This document shows, one piece after another, positions 9,935-28,064 of a DNA stretch of 28,064 nucleotides. Position 1 is the stretch's first letter. Each line of letters opens with the position of its first letter. Origin of the DNA: a virus (taxonomy: Duplodnaviria > Caudoviricetes); the IMG/VR virus record IMGVR_UViG_3300037520_000818, positions 1 to 28,064 of that record; one strand, given 5' to 3'. The notes beneath the pieces were generated by a model. It worked only from the letters and a program-made list of their open reading frames with translations. It ran no database searches and had not been told where the DNA came from. The translations under genes were made by a program, and so were the position numbers.

Positions 9935-11740
9935 CTATTGTTCTGATTGAATTATTTGTGGCGTTCCTAATTGTTTACGTGCATCTTGTAAAGGTGCTAA
10001 TAAATCTGTACTAATACTATTTTCTCTCATCACTTCATCTGCATATTTATTCATAATAGCCACTTGTTCTTCATATCCTTTAAATGCAAACTCTTCATCT
10101 TCTATCAATGCTTTACGCACAAACTTTTGAATATTAGAACTAACTACATAGTCTTTTTCTGTAATACCGTTATTTTGCAAACGCATCATTTTATTATCTT
10201 CAGAAACACCATATAAAGGGTCTAACTTGTAAACCAACATAGTGTATTTGCTTACATCAGAATCATGAGTGAAACGCTTTAAAGATATTTCCATTTCCAT
10301 TGACGCTAATATAACGGGACTTAAATTTGCATCTTTAGCATGTTTATATTCTTCAATCAATAACGCATTATTTACTAAATCGTATTTTTGTGGAATACTA
10401 ATTTTCGGTAGCATTTCCTCACGTGTCTTTGCATCCTGAATTAAAAAGCCATAACGCAAATTACAAGTATAGTAATCTACATTTTCACGAACGTACTTTA
10501 ATAATCCTGCAACCTTATGTGCAAAGTTATCCGTTTCATCTCTGTCCCATTGTTTAGCTATTCCGCTTTCATTTATTGGAACATTGTAAAGAAACTGCAT
10601 GTTAACCGCCTCTAATGCTTCGTATAAGTTGCTTTTAACAGCATCTCTTAATAAGTGTGCTATCTCTATACTCTTTTGAATATAGCCTGCTGGTGGTATT
10701 GGTGGTATTTGGCTATTCGGTCTATTTAAGTCTAAATTAATTACCCTGTTTTGGAAAGGTGAAACAGTTTCATAACCGCTACCGTTACAAGTTCCACACG
10801 TTGAATTTGACATTGCCAAACCTACTTTTGTTTTGCCTGTTCCGTTGCACTTCTTACAAGTATTGGTGTTAATAGTCCATTTTTCCGAATGCATGTGTAA
10901 AACATATTCAGCTTGTAAATCTGAATACATACGTGCTGCTTCGTTTAAATGCGTTACCATTGAATTTATAGGTGTCTTCCAAATAATATCACCGTCTTCA
11001 TTCTTATAGAATAAACCCCTAAATCGGAAAGCCTGCAATTCATCAAAATTATGTTGAAGTCTATTTAATTCTAAATATACCTTTTGCCCTTTTGTTTCTA
11101 AAATTACATATTCTACTATCTCGTTTCTTGTTGATAAAATATGTATATCATATTCACGCTTTCCGCTTTCATCTTTGTATTCATAATCTCTATCTGTTTT
11201 TACTATTGTATAGTCATTTTCTTTGTAATAAATAACTTCGTCAACATTAGCAATAAACGGAATTGGTTTATAAAATTCACCTACCTGAATATTATACGAC
11301 AATGGAACGATAACAACAACAGCATTTGCATCTATCATTATATTCTGTAAGCACTCATCAAACAACCATGAATCTATATTGTCATAAATAGGATATTCAT
11401 TTTCTAAATATGTTTTTAATGTCTTATTTGCCGTTTCTAAAAATGCAGGCTCTTTTGTTTTATCGTAATTCACTTTCCAATCAGGTGAACGTCTTATTTT
11501 ACTCAAAGAAGTAATTACCTTAGAAATCGGGTGTTCCGTTTTTGGTGCGTAGATTTTAAACCTGTAATCCATTATAGCATCAGGCTCATTCGGTCTGCGT
11601 TCTCTGATTATTTCTTCAGGAACTAATCCGTCTGCATGAGTCTTTAACGCTTTATAAAGTTTTAAAGCATCTTTTTTTATATTCCACTTTATTTTATCAT
11701 CGTGGTGGTTAAATATATTTATTTGTTCTATTGGTGTCAT
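9935..11740 (-). CDS. Portal protein (601 aa) with inserted DnaJ-type Zn finger
   Basis: Size, position before the minor capsid gene, ESGIAKQWD portal-type motif, two CxxCxGxG repeats. Confidence 0.8.
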   Translation of the reverse strand: MTPIEQINIFNHHDDKIKWNIKKDALKLYKALKTHADGLVPEEIIRERRPNEPDAIMDYRFKIYAPKTEHPISKVITSLSKIRRSPDWKVNYDKTKEPAFLETANKTLKTYLENEYPIYDNIDSWLFDECLQNIMIDANAVVVIVPLSYNIQVGEFYKPIPFIANVDEVIYYKENDYTIVKTDRDYEYKDESGKREYDIHILSTRNEIVEYVILETKGQKVYLELNRLQHNFDELQAFRFRGLFYKNEDGDIIWKTPINSMVTHLNEAARMYSDLQAEYVLHMHSEKWTINTNTCKKCNGTGKTKVGLAMSNSTCGTCNGSGYETVSPFQNRVINLDLNRPNSQIPPIPPAGYIQKSIEIAHLLRDAVKSNLYEALEAVNMQFLYNVPINESGIAKQWDRDETDNFAHKVAGLLKYVRENVDYYTCNLRYGFLIQDAKTREEMLPKISIPQKYDLVNNALLIEEYKHAKDANLSPVILASMEMEISLKRFTHDSDVSKYTMLVYKLDPLYGVSEDNKMMRLQNNGITEKDYVVSSNIQKFVRKALIEDEEFAFKGYEEQVAIMNKYADEVMRENSISTDLLAPLQDARKQLGTPQIIQSEQ

Positions 11741-12597
11741 AAACTACGTCTTTCAGGAATGAATGATTTTTTATCTCTAATCTTATATGGCTTGCCTAAC
11801 TTACTCATTTTAGAATGATAGTTTGATATAGTTGAAAAATTGTTCTTAATAACTGTCGGTAACTTATTGCCACCTACTGAATATGCAAAGTATATTTCAC
11901 TTAATTTATATGGTTGTAAGTGTGTTGTTCTTTTATCACGTGCATACCAAAATATCGGCAACCAGTTTTCTTTGTGTGGAAATTCATTTAATTTTAATGA
12001 TGCTAACTGAAAAGCTAATTCATCTGCAATTGATGCGCCACCGAATTTAGTACCTTTAACAGGTGGATTTAAATACATATCTTTTACGGTATCAAAATAC
12101 GTTTTAGTCTTTTCAGATTTATTAAAATACACACATTCGCTGTGATAATTCCACATCATAACATCAGGGTAAATTTTTCTAATATCGTTTATATCGCACC
12201 AAATTGAATATCCTGCAAGTCCTGTGTTTGACATAGTCCAATCTAATCCAATGCATTGATTAAATAACTCTGAAGGCTTTTTTGAAAATAACCAAACCAT
12301 ATCAACATCCAAAAAAATAGTTTCCTGAAATGGTGAAAAATCATACATCCACGTTTTTACTTTTATGTATTCGATTTTGCCTTTTGTATTCCAACTTTCA
12401 TTAGGAACTTTTACTTCAAAGTCAAATAAAGACTTGTCTATATAATTGTAGTTATGCGCTAAACAGATAGGCATTTCAGGCTCTAAGTGTTTAATTGACA
12501 TAGCTAAGTTTTTAGCCATTTCCAAGTATTCATTTGAACCGATTGCTATTAATAGGATTCCTTTAGCAGTTTGCACCGCAGTTGCTGTTTTTTCCAT
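11737..12597 (-). CDS. GT-A fold glycosyltransferase (GT8/mannosyltransferase-like, 286 aa)
   Basis: GILLIA...Y..MA.NLA.SIK nucleotide-binding start, SPFQETIFLDVD (DxD), and a DELAF helix motif. Confidence 0.75.
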   Translation of the reverse strand: MEKTATAVQTAKGILLIAIGSNEYLEMAKNLAMSIKHLEPEMPICLAHNYNYIDKSLFDFEVKVPNESWNTKGKIEYIKVKTWMYDFSPFQETIFLDVDMVWLFSKKPSELFNQCIGLDWTMSNTGLAGYSIWCDINDIRKIYPDVMMWNYHSECVYFNKSEKTKTYFDTVKDMYLNPPVKGTKFGGASIADELAFQLASLKLNEFPHKENWLPIFWYARDKRTTHLQPYKLSEIYFAYSVGGNKLPTVIKNNFSTISNYHSKMSKLGKPYKIRDKKSFIPERRSL

Positions 12598-22885: not shown

Positions 22886-23106
22886 TTTATAACTTGCATT
22901 TCTTGAACAAAAAATCTTATATTTTGTGATGTTCCATTTAACAATGTATCACCTGAATGAACATAAACATTACCTAATTTATTAAATGTATATTCAGGAT
23001 AGTTTTTATATAATATTTCTTTTGAATTATTTAAATCATCAATTGAAGACCCTGTTAACTTTATAAAAGTTCCGTCTTTTGTATCTATAAATCTATTGTA
23101 AAACAT
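22882..23106 (-). CDS. Hypothetical protein (74 aa)
   Basis: ATG ORF overlapping both neighbours. Confidence 0.65.
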   Translation of the reverse strand: MFYNRFIDTKDGTFIKLTGSSIDDLNNSKEILYKNYPEYTFNKLGNVYVHSGDTLLNGTSQNIRFFVQEMQVIK

Positions 23107-23750
23107 TTAATTTCTTCTTTTAACCATTCATAATTCATTTCACGTCCGTTTATATCTGAATAACCGCCTTTCTGCCAAGCTATTGGTTTATTTAAAACAT
23201 AAAAATAATTAAATTTTTGCAAAATTGCAAAATAACAATCCACAGGCTGATTAAAACTAACATCTAAACAAAGATTTCCACATTCAGTACCTGAGAATAT
23301 ACTAAGTGACATAATTAATTCATCACATGCATTTGATTTTACATTAATGAGATACGCATGAGTTGTTAAAGTCCTAACACATCTCGAAATTTTATCATTC
23401 ACTTTTATTGGTTGTTCCCTATGTGTTCCGCTTAAATAACATAAATCCCAGTTATTTGGTAATTGTAAATTGGTAATTATTTGCAAAAAATCATTTGATA
23501 ACTCGCAATCATCCTCTAATACCAAACAATTGCTTAAACCCATTATTTTCGCTCTTTCTAAAACTTGACCATGCGAAGCCGTACAACCTACATTTAAATT
23601 ATCTGATTCGTATTTTGCTTTTATATTTTTTCCATTTACACCGTTAAAGACTTCATATTTGAGTCCAAAGCTATCCAATTGCGATGTAATTAGATTTAGC
23701 CTATCTTTGCGATGTGGCAATGTTATTATAAAAATGTGTTCTAACTGCAT
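23085..23750 (-). CDS. Glycosyltransferase family 25 (Lex2B/LgtB-like, 221 aa)
   Basis: IITLPHRKDR, F.GVNG, VGCTASH, LVLEDDC, WDLCYL, TTHAYLI and PVD are the GT25 motif series. Confidence 0.9.
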   Translation of the reverse strand: MQLEHIFIITLPHRKDRLNLITSQLDSFGLKYEVFNGVNGKNIKAKYESDNLNVGCTASHGQVLERAKIMGLSNCLVLEDDCELSNDFLQIITNLQLPNNWDLCYLSGTHREQPIKVNDKISRCVRTLTTHAYLINVKSNACDELIMSLSIFSGTECGNLCLDVSFNQPVDCYFAILQKFNYFYVLNKPIAWQKGGYSDINGREMNYEWLKEEIKCFTIDL

Positions 23751-23932: not shown

Positions 23933-23940
23933 CAAATATA
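23933..23940 (-). promoter_or_regulatory. -7 promoter element TATATTTG ahead of the GT25-terS-terL genes
   Basis: TAnnTTTG in an AT-rich intergenic gap. No clear -33 TTTG at canonical spacing. Confidence 0.6.
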
Positions 23941-24066: not shown

Positions 24067-25791
24067 TTAAAATATATCAAATTCTTCTTCTTTTGGTTTT
24101 CCTTTTACATACTCTATCATTTCATCTAATAGGCTTTTTGGTTTTATCCAGCTTCTATTATCCAAAATATCAACGTAATACCTTTTACTTTTTAAATCAT
24201 AATCAAATTCAGCACATCCTTCTGTTCCCCAATGGTCAAACTTAATTTTTTGAACGTGCACGTAACTTTTGTTAGTTTCAAAATCTCTATATACGCAAAT
24301 TCCGTTATCTGCCTTATTGTAAAAGTTTGCAGAACCTGCTATATCATACAATGTAGGTACTTCATATTTACCTGTACTTAAATTCTTTTTAATCTTAGTA
24401 GGATGTGCTACTAAAAAACAATGAACGTTATTTAATTCACAGAACGTTACAATTTCATCTAAGCATTTTCCTATATAGCTTGTTTTATCATCTGCATGTT
24501 CTATCTTATTCCATGCATCAATGACAAAATATTCAAGTCCGTAACGATGTTTGGTAAGTGCTATCTGTTTTAAAATTGAAGTCAAACTAAAATCCTTTTC
24601 AGGTTTTAAAAACCATACAAATTTATTTAAGTATTCTTTAATTTCGTTTACTTCATCTAATGTTATTCTATTTTGACCGTCCCAATGTTTTCCGCTTATC
24701 TTTCTTACTAATTTACTGAAGTGCAATTGTGTTGGTCTATTTTCAGGTGAATAAAAACAACCTCTCCAATTATGAAGTATTCGTAACTGTAAACATAGAT
24801 AATCCAAAAAATCCGATTTACCATGTGAAGGTATTCCTGTAATCACAGTTAAATATCCTTTTACAATATTCAAATTAAAATTTTGTATTTCGACATTTAC
24901 ACCTTTGTCTAAACCATGAAAATACATATCGTCAATTTCATTACTAACATCGGATATTGTGTAAACTCCGTCTAATGGAAAGTATTGTGCTAATGATTGT
25001 ACGGTTATTACTGAATTTAAGCCGTATTTAATCAAATATTCGTTTGCATCCTTGCAATCTTCTATCTCTATAAATTTACAGCGTTCAAATCCTAAACGTT
25101 CCGCTAAATCGTATTTTAGTTTCCGCCCTGCAATGTCGTTATCTAACCATAAAAGTATTTCAGTCTTATTTTCAAAGTACTCATAGCAGTTATCTAAATA
25201 CTGAAGATTATTAGTATTTAAAGTTGCACCGTTTGGAACGGAAATAACGTTATCAATTCCAGATTCAATTAAACTTAACGCATCCATTTCACCTTCAACT
25301 ATAAAACAGCTTTCTGAATTTTTAATGCCGTCTAAATTGTAAAATATTAATTCAGCATCTTTGAATAGTTTAAATTGCTTTACTGCATTTCGGTATTTTA
25401 TGTTAACTAATTCGTTATCTCGGAAATAATTAAACTGTATTACATTTTCATCTTTCTGTGATTGTGGCATCCATTCTTTGCCATCCGTAATTCGAGCCTT
25501 TAATAATGTCTTTTGCGAAATACTGCGAGTTTCAAACCATTTAACTACCTTTTCAGATAATTCTGTTTTATTTTTCCATTCAGGTTTTTTGTATTCTATC
25601 TTTTGCATCTCATTCTTTAAAAATCCACTCCAATTACAGTGATTACATCTCCACACTTTCTTATCCAAATTTACACCTAAACACTTATCTTTTGACTTTT
25701 TACGATTGTGTGAACATTTCGGACAAGTTGTGGTTATTTCACCTGATATCTTTCCGTATGGTATCTGTATTCCAAAATCTGCGTAATTCAT
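24067..25791 (-). CDS. Bifunctional DNA primase-helicase (T7 gp4/Twinkle-like, 574 aa)
   Basis: N-terminal CPKC...CNHC Zn finger, TOPRIM motifs (IVEGEMDALS, LDNDIAG, KDANE), SF4 helicase motifs (TGIPSHGKS, VIDAW, LVAHP, DIAGS). Confidence 0.95.
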   Translation of the reverse strand: MNYADFGIQIPYGKISGEITTTCPKCSHNRKKSKDKCLGVNLDKKVWRCNHCNWSGFLKNEMQKIEYKKPEWKNKTELSEKVVKWFETRSISQKTLLKARITDGKEWMPQSQKDENVIQFNYFRDNELVNIKYRNAVKQFKLFKDAELIFYNLDGIKNSESCFIVEGEMDALSLIESGIDNVISVPNGATLNTNNLQYLDNCYEYFENKTEILLWLDNDIAGRKLKYDLAERLGFERCKFIEIEDCKDANEYLIKYGLNSVITVQSLAQYFPLDGVYTISDVSNEIDDMYFHGLDKGVNVEIQNFNLNIVKGYLTVITGIPSHGKSDFLDYLCLQLRILHNWRGCFYSPENRPTQLHFSKLVRKISGKHWDGQNRITLDEVNEIKEYLNKFVWFLKPEKDFSLTSILKQIALTKHRYGLEYFVIDAWNKIEHADDKTSYIGKCLDEIVTFCELNNVHCFLVAHPTKIKKNLSTGKYEVPTLYDIAGSANFYNKADNGICVYRDFETNKSYVHVQKIKFDHWGTEGCAEFDYDLKSKRYYVDILDNRSWIKPKSLLDEMIEYVKGKPKEEEFDIF

Positions 25792-26438
25792 TATCTTACA
25801 AGTTTAGGCTTAGGTGGATTAATTGTTTTTTCTATTTCAGTTATATGCCTACGAAAACTATTTGTAACATGTTTGTAATCGTTAAAACTACTACCATTTA
25901 AAAACCTTTGTCTAAATGATTGAATAATCTGTGGTGACTTTGCAGATAAATTTAACTTCATTAATTCAGCCTCAAATATTGCTCTTTGGTTTTTTAGATA
26001 CCAATCAACTATATTTCCTTTTTCGATTTTTCCGTTTATAATGTAGTAATCATAATCTTTATCTATAACTATAACATTATCTGTATCTATATCATTATCT
26101 ATATCGGTTGATTTCGTTGAGGTATGTTGAGTATTTTCAACATCCGTTAACGTTTGTTGAAGTTCGTTAAGCTTTTTAACACGTTTTGCCTCTGCTGAAG
26201 CCTTACCTGCATCTGAATTTTTACCAACCTTATCAATGTATTTAACTAAATCACGTTTTAATTGGTGTTTTATAGGTTCAAATCCTATCTGCGTAATTCT
26301 ATCAGGCATTTCAGGATTAAGGTCGTTAACATACCTAAAAACATGTTTAATTAATCTACCAGCTTCTTCATCTGTTAATGTTTCAAACAAATGTATTTGG
26401 TCTACATATAGTAAAAATGATTTTTTATCCTTTGCCAT
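25791..26438 (-). CDS. Putative replication initiator (DUF6291-like N-terminus, 215 aa); likely start ATG 26438
   Basis: KKSFLLYVD...LTDEEAGRLIK..F.Y N-terminus, NSDAGKASAEAKR, low-complexity linker carrying DNA repeats. Coupled to the primase-helicase. Confidence 0.7.
   Translation of the reverse strand: MAKDKKSFLLYVDQIHLFETLTDEEAGRLIKHVFRYVNDLNPEMPDRITQIGFEPIKHQLKRDLVKYIDKVGKNSDAGKASAEAKRVKKLNELQQTLTDVENTQHTSTKSTDIDNDIDTDNVIVIDKDYDYYIINGKIEKGNIVDWYLKNQRAIFEAELMKLNLSAKSPQIIQSFRQRFLNGSSFNDYKHVTNSFRRHITEIEKTINPPKPKLVR
26107..26180. repeat. Helically phased GTTRA/TYAAC repeats (putative iterons, replication origin)
   Basis: GTTRA at 26107, 26116, 26126, 26146, 26156 and 26166. Inverted copies at 26137 and 26176. 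Confidence 0.65.
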
Positions 26439-26811
26439 TTGTTTTAATTTTATTAAGATAATTACTAACAAGCGTTAACTCATAAGGGTCAAATGATTTT
26501 ATAGTTTCCAATATTGATTCTAACTCAAAAATGTAGTCAGTAATAACAAAATTATCATCAATAATATTTTTAATATTTCTTTTTGATTCAGTTATGTCTT
26601 TATGGCAATCAATACATAATGTTATAAAAACAGAATCATCATAATCCCATATTTCATTGCCAAAGATATATTTTTTATGATGAACATTAAGTTCTGTGTC
26701 ATCATCAAAGCAACATTGACAAGTAAAATTATCACGTTGTAAAATTTCCAAACGTTTCTTTTGCCATTTAGGATGTCGTAATTTTTCAGAATAAGAAGTG
26801 CTATTTGCCAT
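26425..26811 (-). CDS. HNH endonuclease (McrA-like, 128 aa)
   Basis: KWQKKRLEILQRDNFTCQCC...LNVHH..Y...ITLCIDCH. Confidence 0.9.
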   Translation of the reverse strand: MANSTSYSEKLRHPKWQKKRLEILQRDNFTCQCCFDDDTELNVHHKKYIFGNEIWDYDDSVFITLCIDCHKDITESKRNIKNIIDDNFVITDYIFELESILETIKSFDPYELTLVSNYLNKIKTNGKG

Positions 26812-26914
26812 AAAAGAGAATTAAAAAACCGTATCGGTTATCAGTTGGAACGGGTGTAAAGCAACCCTCTGATTTTCCGATACGGTAGTATGTTAAAAAT
26901 GTATTTTCTCTCAT
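26801..26914 (-). CDS. Possible leader peptide (37 aa, MRENTFLTYYRIGKSEGCFTPVPTDNRYGFLILFYGK) spanning the attenuator hairpin
   Basis: Read by hand: ATG 26914 to TAG 26801, overlapping the HNH start by 11 nt. Confidence 0.35.
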   Translation of the reverse strand: MRENTFLTYYRIGKSEGCFTPVPTDNRYGFLILFYGK

Positions 26915-26942
26915 GTGCTTTACTTTTAGGTGTTCCAATCCC
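26822..26942 (-). ncRNA. Structured leader RNA / attenuator with P4 CI- or P1 C4-like architecture
   Basis: 10-bp stem 26877-26886/26828-26837, 5-bp stem, 4-bp stem with an 8-nt loop and a 7-nt bulge, then a U run. Loop and bulge are complementary to 26916-26923 and 26932-26938. Confidence 0.7.
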
Positions 26943-26947
26943 TTATG

Positions 26948-26979
26948 CAAATATAGATAAAAGTATTCTATTGTGCAAG
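26948..26979 (-). promoter_or_regulatory. Bacteroidota primary-sigma promoter (-33 TTG, -7 TATATTTG, 20-nt spacer)
   Basis: CTTG-N20-TATATTTG directly ahead of the structured leader. Confidence 0.8.
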
Positions 26980-27135
26980 TTTTATGTAAAAATATTTTCC
27001 GTTATTAAATTCAACACTTCCGATTTCTATCATCATATCCAATTCAATTTTTAATGATACGTAGGTATGTGAATGAGATAGCTTTTTTAGAAGTTCATTA
27101 AATGTGTGTGGTGTTGTTAGTGTTTGTTTTATCAT
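26968..27135 (-). CDS. Small protein absent from the ORF track (55 aa, MIKQTLTTPHTFNELLKKL...IEIGSVEFNNGKYFYIKLAQ), winged-helix-like
   Basis: The ATG overlaps the NinG stop (ATGA) and the ORF fills the gap to the promoter. Confidence 0.6.
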   Translation of the reverse strand: MIKQTLTTPHTFNELLKKLSHSHTYVSLKIELDMMIEIGSVEFNNGKYFYIKLAQ

Positions 27136-27680
27136 TGTTCTATTTGTTTACAAAGTTTCTTGTATTTTTCTGCTATCTCAATGTAGTATTCTTTGCTTAT
27201 CACACGTTTGCTTTTATCATCTGCCAAAGTTTCTAATTCATTCAATACTTTTATTCCATATCTTTTTATTATTCCTTTTCGGTATTCAATTAGATTGCCT
27301 GATTTATGTTGGTTACAAAAAACGCACTGGCCTGAACAATTAAACTCGTTAAATAATAGTTGAGGTGTTCCACTTGCTGAATAATAATGACCAGCATCAA
27401 ACTTTGTAATTGAACTTAATTTAAAATCACACGAAATACAACTTTTACCGACATCTCTAAGCCTTATAAATCTTTGAAACCAATAACGTGCTTCTTTTCG
27501 ATAATCAGTAACCGTTTTTAGCTTTTCCTTAATTATTGACTTTTCCTTTTTCCACTTTTTCTCACGTTCTTTTTGTACAATTTCTTTTGCTTTTTTAACG
27601 GTGCAATCGAAACACAAATTTTGTATAGATGTGTATTGCTTAAACTCTAATTTGCATTTCTTACACTTCAAAACGGACAT
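27132..27680 (-). CDS. ninG: NinG/Rap-family recombination endonuclease (182 aa)
   Basis: CKKC..C..C, FQRFIRLRD.G..CISC, FDAGHY, FNEFNC.GQC..CN..KSGNL.EYR. Confidence 0.9.
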   Translation of the reverse strand: MSVLKCKKCKLEFKQYTSIQNLCFDCTVKKAKEIVQKEREKKWKKEKSIIKEKLKTVTDYRKEARYWFQRFIRLRDVGKSCISCDFKLSSITKFDAGHYYSASGTPQLLFNEFNCSGQCVFCNQHKSGNLIEYRKGIIKRYGIKVLNELETLADDKSKRVISKEYYIEIAEKYKKLCKQIEQ

Positions 27681-27838
27681 TTTATTTTATCAATTCTTTT
27701 ATTTTCGCTTTCTATTATTTTAGGCATATCACGTTCTATTTTTTCTCTTATAGCATTTCTAATAAACGCTGTAGGCTTTATTCTAAGCGTTTTTAATTGC
27801 TTTAAAAGAATGTTAAATATGAATCCATTTTTTGTTAT
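27668..27838 (-). pseudogene. Reading frame with no ATG/GTG/TTG start near its 5' end (...LLKQLKTLRIKPTAFIRNAIREKIERDMPKIIESENKRIDKIKCPF*), ribbon-helix-helix-like remnant
   Basis: Open frame between the HNH gene and ninG. Its stop lies 13 nt into ninG. The only in-frame ATG would give 19 aa. Confidence 0.45.
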
Positions 27839-28064
27839 TTATAATATCACAAATAAGACAATTACTCACGTTATAAATAATAGATAGTTTTCGTTGAGAT
27901 AAATTTTCTGAATTTTTTCTAATTTCTAAAACCTGTTTTTCTGTTAATTTACATCTGCCGTTGTTTGTTCCATTAGCATTCATAAGTCCTATTTTGTAAG
28001 AATGAATAGTATTTTCAGAATAAGTACACCACTCTAAATTTTTAGTAATATTATCTGTTTTTAT
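27813..28064 (-). CDS. Partial (3' end) HNH homing-type endonuclease with C-terminal HTH
   Basis: Read by hand: IKTDNITKNLEWCTYSENTIHSYKIGL...CKLTEKQVLEIR...SQRKLSIIYNVS...KKWIHI*. Confidence 0.85.
   Translation of the reverse strand: MKTDNITKNLEWCTYSENTIHSYKIGLMNANGTNNGRCKLTEKQVLEIRKNSENLSQRKLSIIYNVSNCLICDIINNKKWIHI

Follow-up and report, generated by a model that had tools for sequence, protein, structure and literature searches.

The 28,064-nt window analysed here (all positions refer to it unless a locus is named) is a 28-kb phage contig in which the genes for NinG, an HNH endonuclease, a DUF6291 protein, a primase-helicase, the terminase and the structural proteins follow each other in this order on the minus strand; a short leader precedes the replication genes. 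A preliminary description, made from the letters of the sequence, proposed an RNA switch of the CI/C4 kind, serving immunity or attenuation. We conclude that this leader is a real RNA element that is not catalogued in Rfam. With a probability of about 0.45, we favour the reading that the RNA released at its terminator works in trans against the leader from which it derives, which would amount to allele-specific negative feedback on the dose of the replication protein.

All parts of the element lie on the minus strand. The promoter comprises a Bacteroidota -7 element TAnnTTTG (26948..26955), found in 13 of 13 homologs, and a TTG 20 nt upstream (26976..26978), a putative -33-type element with similar spacing in most homologs. 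Promoters of Flavobacterium follow the TAnnTTTG consensus with 4-5 nt to the start (PMC6847099; here and below, PMC identifiers stand for excerpts of the articles), and this spacing predicts a transcript start at 26943 or 26942. The 5' end of the transcript is predicted, with a probability of about 0.65, to form a small hairpin of 3-4 bp (26928..26943), absent from the preliminary description, with the 7-nt box1 (26932..26938), which contains a YUNR U-turn-type motif, in its loop. The 8-nt box2 (26916..26923), the variable specificity element, spans -9 to -2 relative to the AUG (26914) of a 37-codon leader ORF (26801..26914), so that it stands directly near the AUG, as had been noted, but ends one base before it and does not abut it. 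The ORF crosses an irregular terminator-like hairpin of 10 + 5 + 4 bp (26828..26886, with outer arms at 26886-26877 and 26837-26828), recognised by folding and alignment, and overlaps the AUG of the HNH gene (26811). The apical loop of this hairpin (26856..26863) is the exact complement of box2, and its 3'-side bulge (26845..26851) is the exact complement of box1, the two matches standing in nested order. Six T follow (26823..26828), and a terminated RNA of about 120 nt, ending at this U tract, is predicted. The promoter, both boxes, the ORF, the hairpin and the loop and bulge complements are thus all located where the preliminary description had placed them; the Bacteroidota host group that it suggested agrees with the promoter type and with the occurrence of a homolog in a Chitinophagales MAG.

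Hairpins followed by a T run are common upstream of genes, which raises the possibility of a plain terminator with chance complementarity or of a structure at the level of DNA. For the hairpin, the folding energy is -23.6 kcal/mol (z = -4.19), with none of 200 shuffles equally good, its innermost 4-bp stem being weak (pairing probability 0.37). When the 57-nt 5' part was shuffled 300,000 times, both boxes were matched in nested order in only 2 cases, and none of the 55,476 other 57-nt windows of the contig matches both; the covariation described below was reached by none of 500 shuffles and stands far above slid controls; and the G-U pairs present in the kissing helix and the stems fit RNA. 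A plain terminator or DNA-level structure is therefore largely refuted and very improbable. Further copies of box2 in the window (25383, 21547 and 10116) were set aside as coding sequence lacking a box1 partner.

Homologs of the element came from a search with the HNH protein, which yielded a single further locus, not identical in sequence, that carries this leader (L004), and from five DNA pattern scans, which yielded the rest. The scan matches were mostly due to chance, with true members making up 4 of 71 distinct, 9 of 82 distinct and 2 of 43. None of the patterns specified box2 or the loop, whereas box1 was part of four of the five and the bulge of three. The alignment comprises 13 distinct sequences, with L249 excluded because it diverges right after the hairpin. 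BLAST with the element against cultured phages produced chance matches only; a model, R1, run over 100 loci recovered the known members and L016 (36.8 bits).

The 13 homologs carry six box2/loop spellings, each self-complementary, and the true assignment of boxes to loops ranks first among 720 permutations (-60.0 versus a mean of -25.6 kcal/mol, with one sequence per allele). Across the 13-row alignment, 93% of the box2/loop cells pair and two-sided changes occur at five of the seven counted pairs. Taken as a whole, the structure surpasses every one of 500 shuffles and each slid control, both in percent paired and in covariation score; in the number of additional pair types it does not stand out from the shuffles (432 of 500). 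Loop/target covariation, which had been named beforehand as a check, is accordingly borne out. The outer stem is 96.9% paired, with two-sided changes in three of its ten pairs, and pairing is lower in the inner stems (74% and 78%). The box1/bulge helix behaves differently: box1 is invariant in six of the seven pairs, in part as an effect of how the homologs were picked, since it stood in most of the search patterns, and no two-sided change is seen in the 13 rows, so that the alignment yields no covariation for this helix. Its support comes instead from two loci chosen by protein, L373 and L016, which repeat the layout with unrelated letters, the boxes being assigned by eye. In L373, the primase of which is 76% identical, the leader sequence is unrelated, and by eye a 5-nt 5' segment matches a 5-nt bulge, a 6-7-nt box before the AUG matches the loop, and a 39-codon ORF crosses the hairpin; the layout of L016, again by eye, is similar. 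The small 5'-terminal hairpin occurs in three letter sets among the 13 homologs and, in the MAFFT alignment, shows a two-sided change at one pair, with another pair poorly kept.

Box2 and the loop change 3-5 times faster than the linker and the stems. Among eight homologs with the same scaffold, differences per site amount to 0.42 in the loop, 0.12 in the linker and 0.08 in the stems, the loop figure being used because the aligner shifted the box2 columns of L229. Between the window and L229 or L332, none of 38 stem positions and five of seven loop positions differ, and L224 and L273 agree throughout the first 24 and the last 26 columns but differ at three of seven positions in box and loop alike. 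The alleles also reassort relative to the promoter and the initiator gene; eight of the 13 rows are unresolved in the scaffold tree, so that allele changes are not countable as independent events. Such fast, compensated, non-cross-reacting change would be expected of specificity determinants that act between molecules.

In 12 of the 13 homologs, no stop codon closes the leader ORF before the end of the U tract (an expectation of about 0.1 for each, among sequences that are related), the exception being L332, where it stops at codon 18. The end of the ORF falls on or beside the start of the next gene. The encoded peptide is not conserved among the homologs, otherwise follows the RNA letters and has no PHROG match. 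In L192 and L234, a 1-nt deletion rewrites the peptide, yet the frame stays open and overlapping, and hence translation rather than the peptide seems to be selected; as the preliminary description had implied, selection appears to act on translation across the terminator. The element resembles an attenuator in having, at the sequence level, a stable hairpin and a U tract that stand between the promoter and the first gene and are crossed by an ORF; conserved sensing codons or a conserved peptide were not found in the leader. Owing to the A run that separates the boxes, position -11 is A in all 13 homologs and position -12 in 11 of them, which resembles efficient Flavobacterium starts (PMC6847099), and A at -3 is found in just three.

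The feedback that we favour would operate as follows. The terminated RNA would build up as time passes and genome copies multiply, and cleavage within the A/U-rich linker might separate it from its own boxes; a cut of this type is known for the P4 CI RNA. Its hairpin would dock first on the invariant box1, presented in the U-turn-type loop within the first 16 nt of nascent transcripts, and pairing would then extend to box2 over the ribosome landing site, blocking the leader ORF and letting the terminator fold. When the inhibitor is absent, a ribosome starting at +30 would cross the hairpin, prevent termination and re-initiate at the overlapping next gene. The outcome would be a timer or a copy-number brake on the initiator and the primase-helicase that would work only among phages with the same box2 allele. 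We favour action in trans because box1 is exposed before the loop exists or the ribosome loads, and because of the allele pattern. The recurrence of the layout with unrelated letters in L373 and L016, which were picked by protein only, also argues for this reading. The YUNR motif has been reported in rapid loop-loop antisense recognition (PMC4485353), and its position in the hairpin loop of box1 is suggestive of such recognition, the motif being short and common. Precedents exist in P4 CI and IsrK, leader-derived RNAs that act on their own operons (PMC4825925, PMC3632133, PMC8546580). Against feedback in trans stand the early stop in L332, the rarity of A at -3, the undiversified allele of the Mumin-type phages, the 19 of 23 simpler leaders (see below) that lack a crossing ORF, and the opposite sign of the IsrK precedent.

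An alternative that we regard as possible, if doubtful, is a throttle acting in cis only, whereby the pairing of the boxes with loop and bulge inside each growing transcript sets a fixed or condition-dependent level of read-through, either by delaying closure of the terminator, as an anti-terminator would, or by hiding the leader start, while the RNA, once released, has no activity. When growing transcripts are folded at equilibrium, without pseudoknots and without a polymerase footprint, the boxes are paired in cis with a probability of 0.7-0.95 at 88-112 nt, and the terminator wins only at 116 nt. The 29-nt linker is probably long enough for intramolecular pairing, and one-box relatives without any ORF are common. 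Cis pairing is thus available first, and the released RNA could neutralise itself, which is the weak point of the trans model. A throttle of this kind nevertheless fails to explain why box2 and the loop outpace the unpaired linker and the stems, or why the alleles are discrete and do not cross-react: pairs that act only in cis are expected to change slowly, and the fast change of loop and box2 therefore counts for action in trans. We consider it unlikely that the RNA acts in trans with the opposite sign, as a switch-on of the IsrK type (PMC4825925) brought about by its occupying the boxes or the loop, or that a double pseudoknot recruits a phage or host anti-terminator. In the read-through RNA of six of the 13 homologs, the leader start can pair with the start of the next gene to a degree that few shuffles attain (no more than 9 of 300), and this closed state would perhaps need opening; this helix, however, has no self-over-cross preference (-8.2 versus -7.6 kcal/mol) and no covariation, and the variable loop letters speak against a site for a sequence-specific protein or ligand.

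Membership in the C4/CI family, to which the preliminary description had likened the element, did not hold. Searches against Rfam gave no match at the gathering score in the window, the C4, c4-2 and IsrK models being absent at E values up to 10 in 26500-27200, and these models had no match in 9, 20 and 10 homolog loci either. Like these RNAs, the element does have two single-stranded segments that are complementary to a two-part target within its own operon. A second, downstream target of the seqC type is missing: on the coding strand of the whole window, with one mismatch per box allowed, the upstream site is the only one. The genes that follow (HNH, DUF6291, primase-helicase) include no icd/kil-type gene or antirepressor, and neither do those downstream of the homologs, which encode DUF6291, Lin1244_N, DnaB or proteins without a family. 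Because a model match, a downstream target and an icd/kil gene or antirepressor are all lacking, the element is not a member of the C4/CI family.

The CI RNA of P4 is known for bipartite loop-plus-bulge pairing and translation-coupled termination, and P4 CI/C4 RNA for the processing of a precursor by RNase P into a stable short RNA. In P4 immunity (CI RNA, seqA, seqC), as proposed here, a leader RNA pairs with the upstream part of its own transcript, and transcription ends prematurely before the replication genes (PMC4825925). Unlike in P4, there is only an upstream target, the antisense hairpin is itself the terminator-like structure, a short ORF begins upstream of the hairpin and runs through it, and the partial contigs contain neither a kil/icd-like gene nor a sign of lysogeny. 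The C4 RNA of P1/P7 (RF01695) recognises two short target boxes and underlies allele-based heteroimmunity. It is a trans-acting RNA repressor from its own operon (PMC8546580), and the hosts given for C4 and c4-a1b1 are Proteobacteria and phages of this group (PMC2864571). C4, however, controls an antirepressor and has a branched fold, whereas the present element precedes replication genes, forms one irregular hairpin and lacks a model match. Gifsy-1 IsrK, a short terminated RNA, regulates in trans the longer transcript that arises by read-through from its own start; here too a short ORF is coupled to the gene that follows, and the peptide sequence is not conserved (PMC4825925). IsrK, however, is an activator, the ORF that it targets is located beyond the terminator on the downstream side, and it matches the element neither in sequence nor by model.

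In plasmid antisense control, leader ORFs are coupled to the initiator (tap/repA) and alleles are of the incompatibility type. The systems of R1 (CopA/tap-repA), ColIb-P9 and pT181/pIP501 also share YUNR loop-loop recognition (PMC4485353), but their RNAs are transcribed from the opposite strand and are complementary along their full length, whereas here 7 + 8 nt of the same strand would pair. No opposite-strand promoter or fully complementary RNA was found for the element: TAnnTTTG is absent from the opposite strand within 3 kb, the nearest plus-strand copy being at 23702, and a sigma-70-like antisense promoter at 26716 was rejected as being of a kind that occurs at chance frequency (5 found, 6.4 expected) and lies within the exchangeable HNH gene. 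No paper describing the element was found in the literature searched, the comparison with catalogued RNAs having covered Rfam.

Given the likeness to P4 and P1, the RNA of a prophage could be thought to silence the replication genes of an incoming phage with the same allele, that is, to confer the lysogenic or superinfection immunity named as a purpose in the preliminary description. The logic and the kind of target operon are those of P4 (PMC4825925), the allele groups resemble immunity groups, a distant capsid relative (49% identity) carries an integrase, and one homolog resides in the Chitinophagales MAG contig. This contig, however, showed only phage-like genes on the strand listed. Neither a tyrosine integrase nor a resolvase was found in this phage's 31-kb contig (57% complete) or in a 41-kb close relative (78% complete), and tyrosine integrases were also absent from three other partial contigs and from four of five capsid relatives, none of the five having a resolvase. 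Model R1, run over 151 genomes of the host order, matched only its seed, and one-box versions of the element are present in Mumin phages, which are reported to be lytic only (PMC7077304). With no integrase or resolvase found in the partial contigs and only the seed of R1 in the host order, immunity is not supported, and we deem it quite improbable.

The placement of the element before a replication operon was confirmed. The HNH gene (26425..26811, minus strand; phrog_119, E 2.8e-15) is followed, on the same strand, by the gene for the DUF6291 protein (25791..26438; PF19808, E 7.6e-20), a likely replication initiator that is annotated as 'replication protein' in cultured phages, and by that for a primase-helicase with Toprim and DnaB-like parts (24067..25791; domain and family matches). 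The first gene after the element encodes HNH in two homologs, DUF6291 in three, a protein of the Lin1244_N/replication-initiation family in three and an unassigned protein in five. Most homologs with enough downstream DNA have an initiator-like gene and a primase-helicase or DnaB within three genes; in L323 and L332, the next two genes have no family match. The constant neighbour is thus the replication initiator/helicase module and not HNH, and a brake specific to HNH, which comes next in just two of 13 homologs, is ruled out. Among eight close relatives of the primase, four have this leader, two have the L373 form, and two have a different leader, the loop of which matches boxes over the initiator start; in one close relative, the promoter of L004 is followed by this different type. 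Because close relatives differ in leader type, in one case behind the same promoter, the slot between promoter and replication genes is, judging from these comparisons, a site that holds exchangeable RNA cassettes.

The different leader type stands after the same promoter in the close relatives L459 (18250-18345, minus strand), L033 (937-1030) and L369 (952-1042). Its hairpin loop matches two downstream repeats, the second of which overlaps the initiator start codon, and the letters change together in L369 (three sequences, by eye). A second leader with the same promoter type occurs in the phage studied here, just past the right end of the window (L360:2995-3157, minus strand), before an HNH gene whose tail is window 27813-28064. 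Its 36-codon ORF runs across a terminator-like hairpin, and a 7-nt box over the AUG of this ORF is the complement of the hairpin loop; the box is a different one from that of the element.

Simpler relatives of the design are widespread. Complements of at least 8 nt were present at 23 of 52 promoter-plus-hairpin sites versus about two expected from swapped controls; nine of these sites belong to the two-box family and 13 are simpler one-box leaders. One-box leaders occur in the cultured phages 11b, Harreka_1, phi19:3 and elemoA and in five phages of the Mumin group, so that the mechanism is directly testable. In four of these five, another leader, with a box of its own, stands ahead of an HNH gene, and the five Mumin-type phages examined share a single allele at the replication leader. 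An ORF crosses the hairpin in four of 23 distinct simpler leaders and is absent from 19, a few doubtful rows included, and translation therefore cannot account for the wider design in general.

Tentatively, we propose that Bacteroidota phages, including lytic ones, run a one-promoter RNA feedback circuit in which an aborted leader transcript would repress its own operon, giving plasmid-like control of copy number; swappable 8-nt alleles would sort co-infecting phages into RNA incompatibility groups, and the two-box translated form would couple pairing to ribosome entry. No description of how Bacteroidota phages dose replication initiators from host-type constitutive promoters was found in the literature searched. 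If true, RNA control of the P4/C4 type would reach another phylum and lytic phages in the form of a compact switch, and its alleles, orthogonal by nature, would be ready-made orthogonal regulators for Bacteroidota genetics.

One-box kissing-loop leaders were located at L355:3751, L356:3505, L357:2886, L358:2609 and L362:2097 and 3132 (phages 11b, Harreka_1, phi19:3, elemoA and tooticki9-1, respectively). Others precede genes labelled by eye as helicase/methylase-like (L460:872, minus strand), nuclease-like (L463:10820, plus strand) and small unknown (L204:1600), and the wider design is thus not limited to initiators. The unrelated, GC-richer phage contigs L191, L193, L195 and L196 (at about 2000-2110) reuse the element's 7-nt box in the loop of a 5' hairpin, with its complement in a bulge of a branched terminator; in L195, the Rfam Betaproteobacteria-1 RNA comes directly after this terminator.

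Elsewhere on the minus strand of the window, another TATATTTG promoter element (23948-23933) directly precedes an AUG at 23935, which suggests that this start is served by a nearly leaderless transcript. A gene 9935-11740 encodes a probable portal-sized protein with a DnaJ-type CXXCXGXG zinc-finger stretch (E 5e-4, under the curated cut-off). The structural region also contains a glycosyltransferase family 25 gene (23085-23750) and a second, by eye glycosyltransferase-like gene (11737-12597), a hint of virion or DNA glycosylation.
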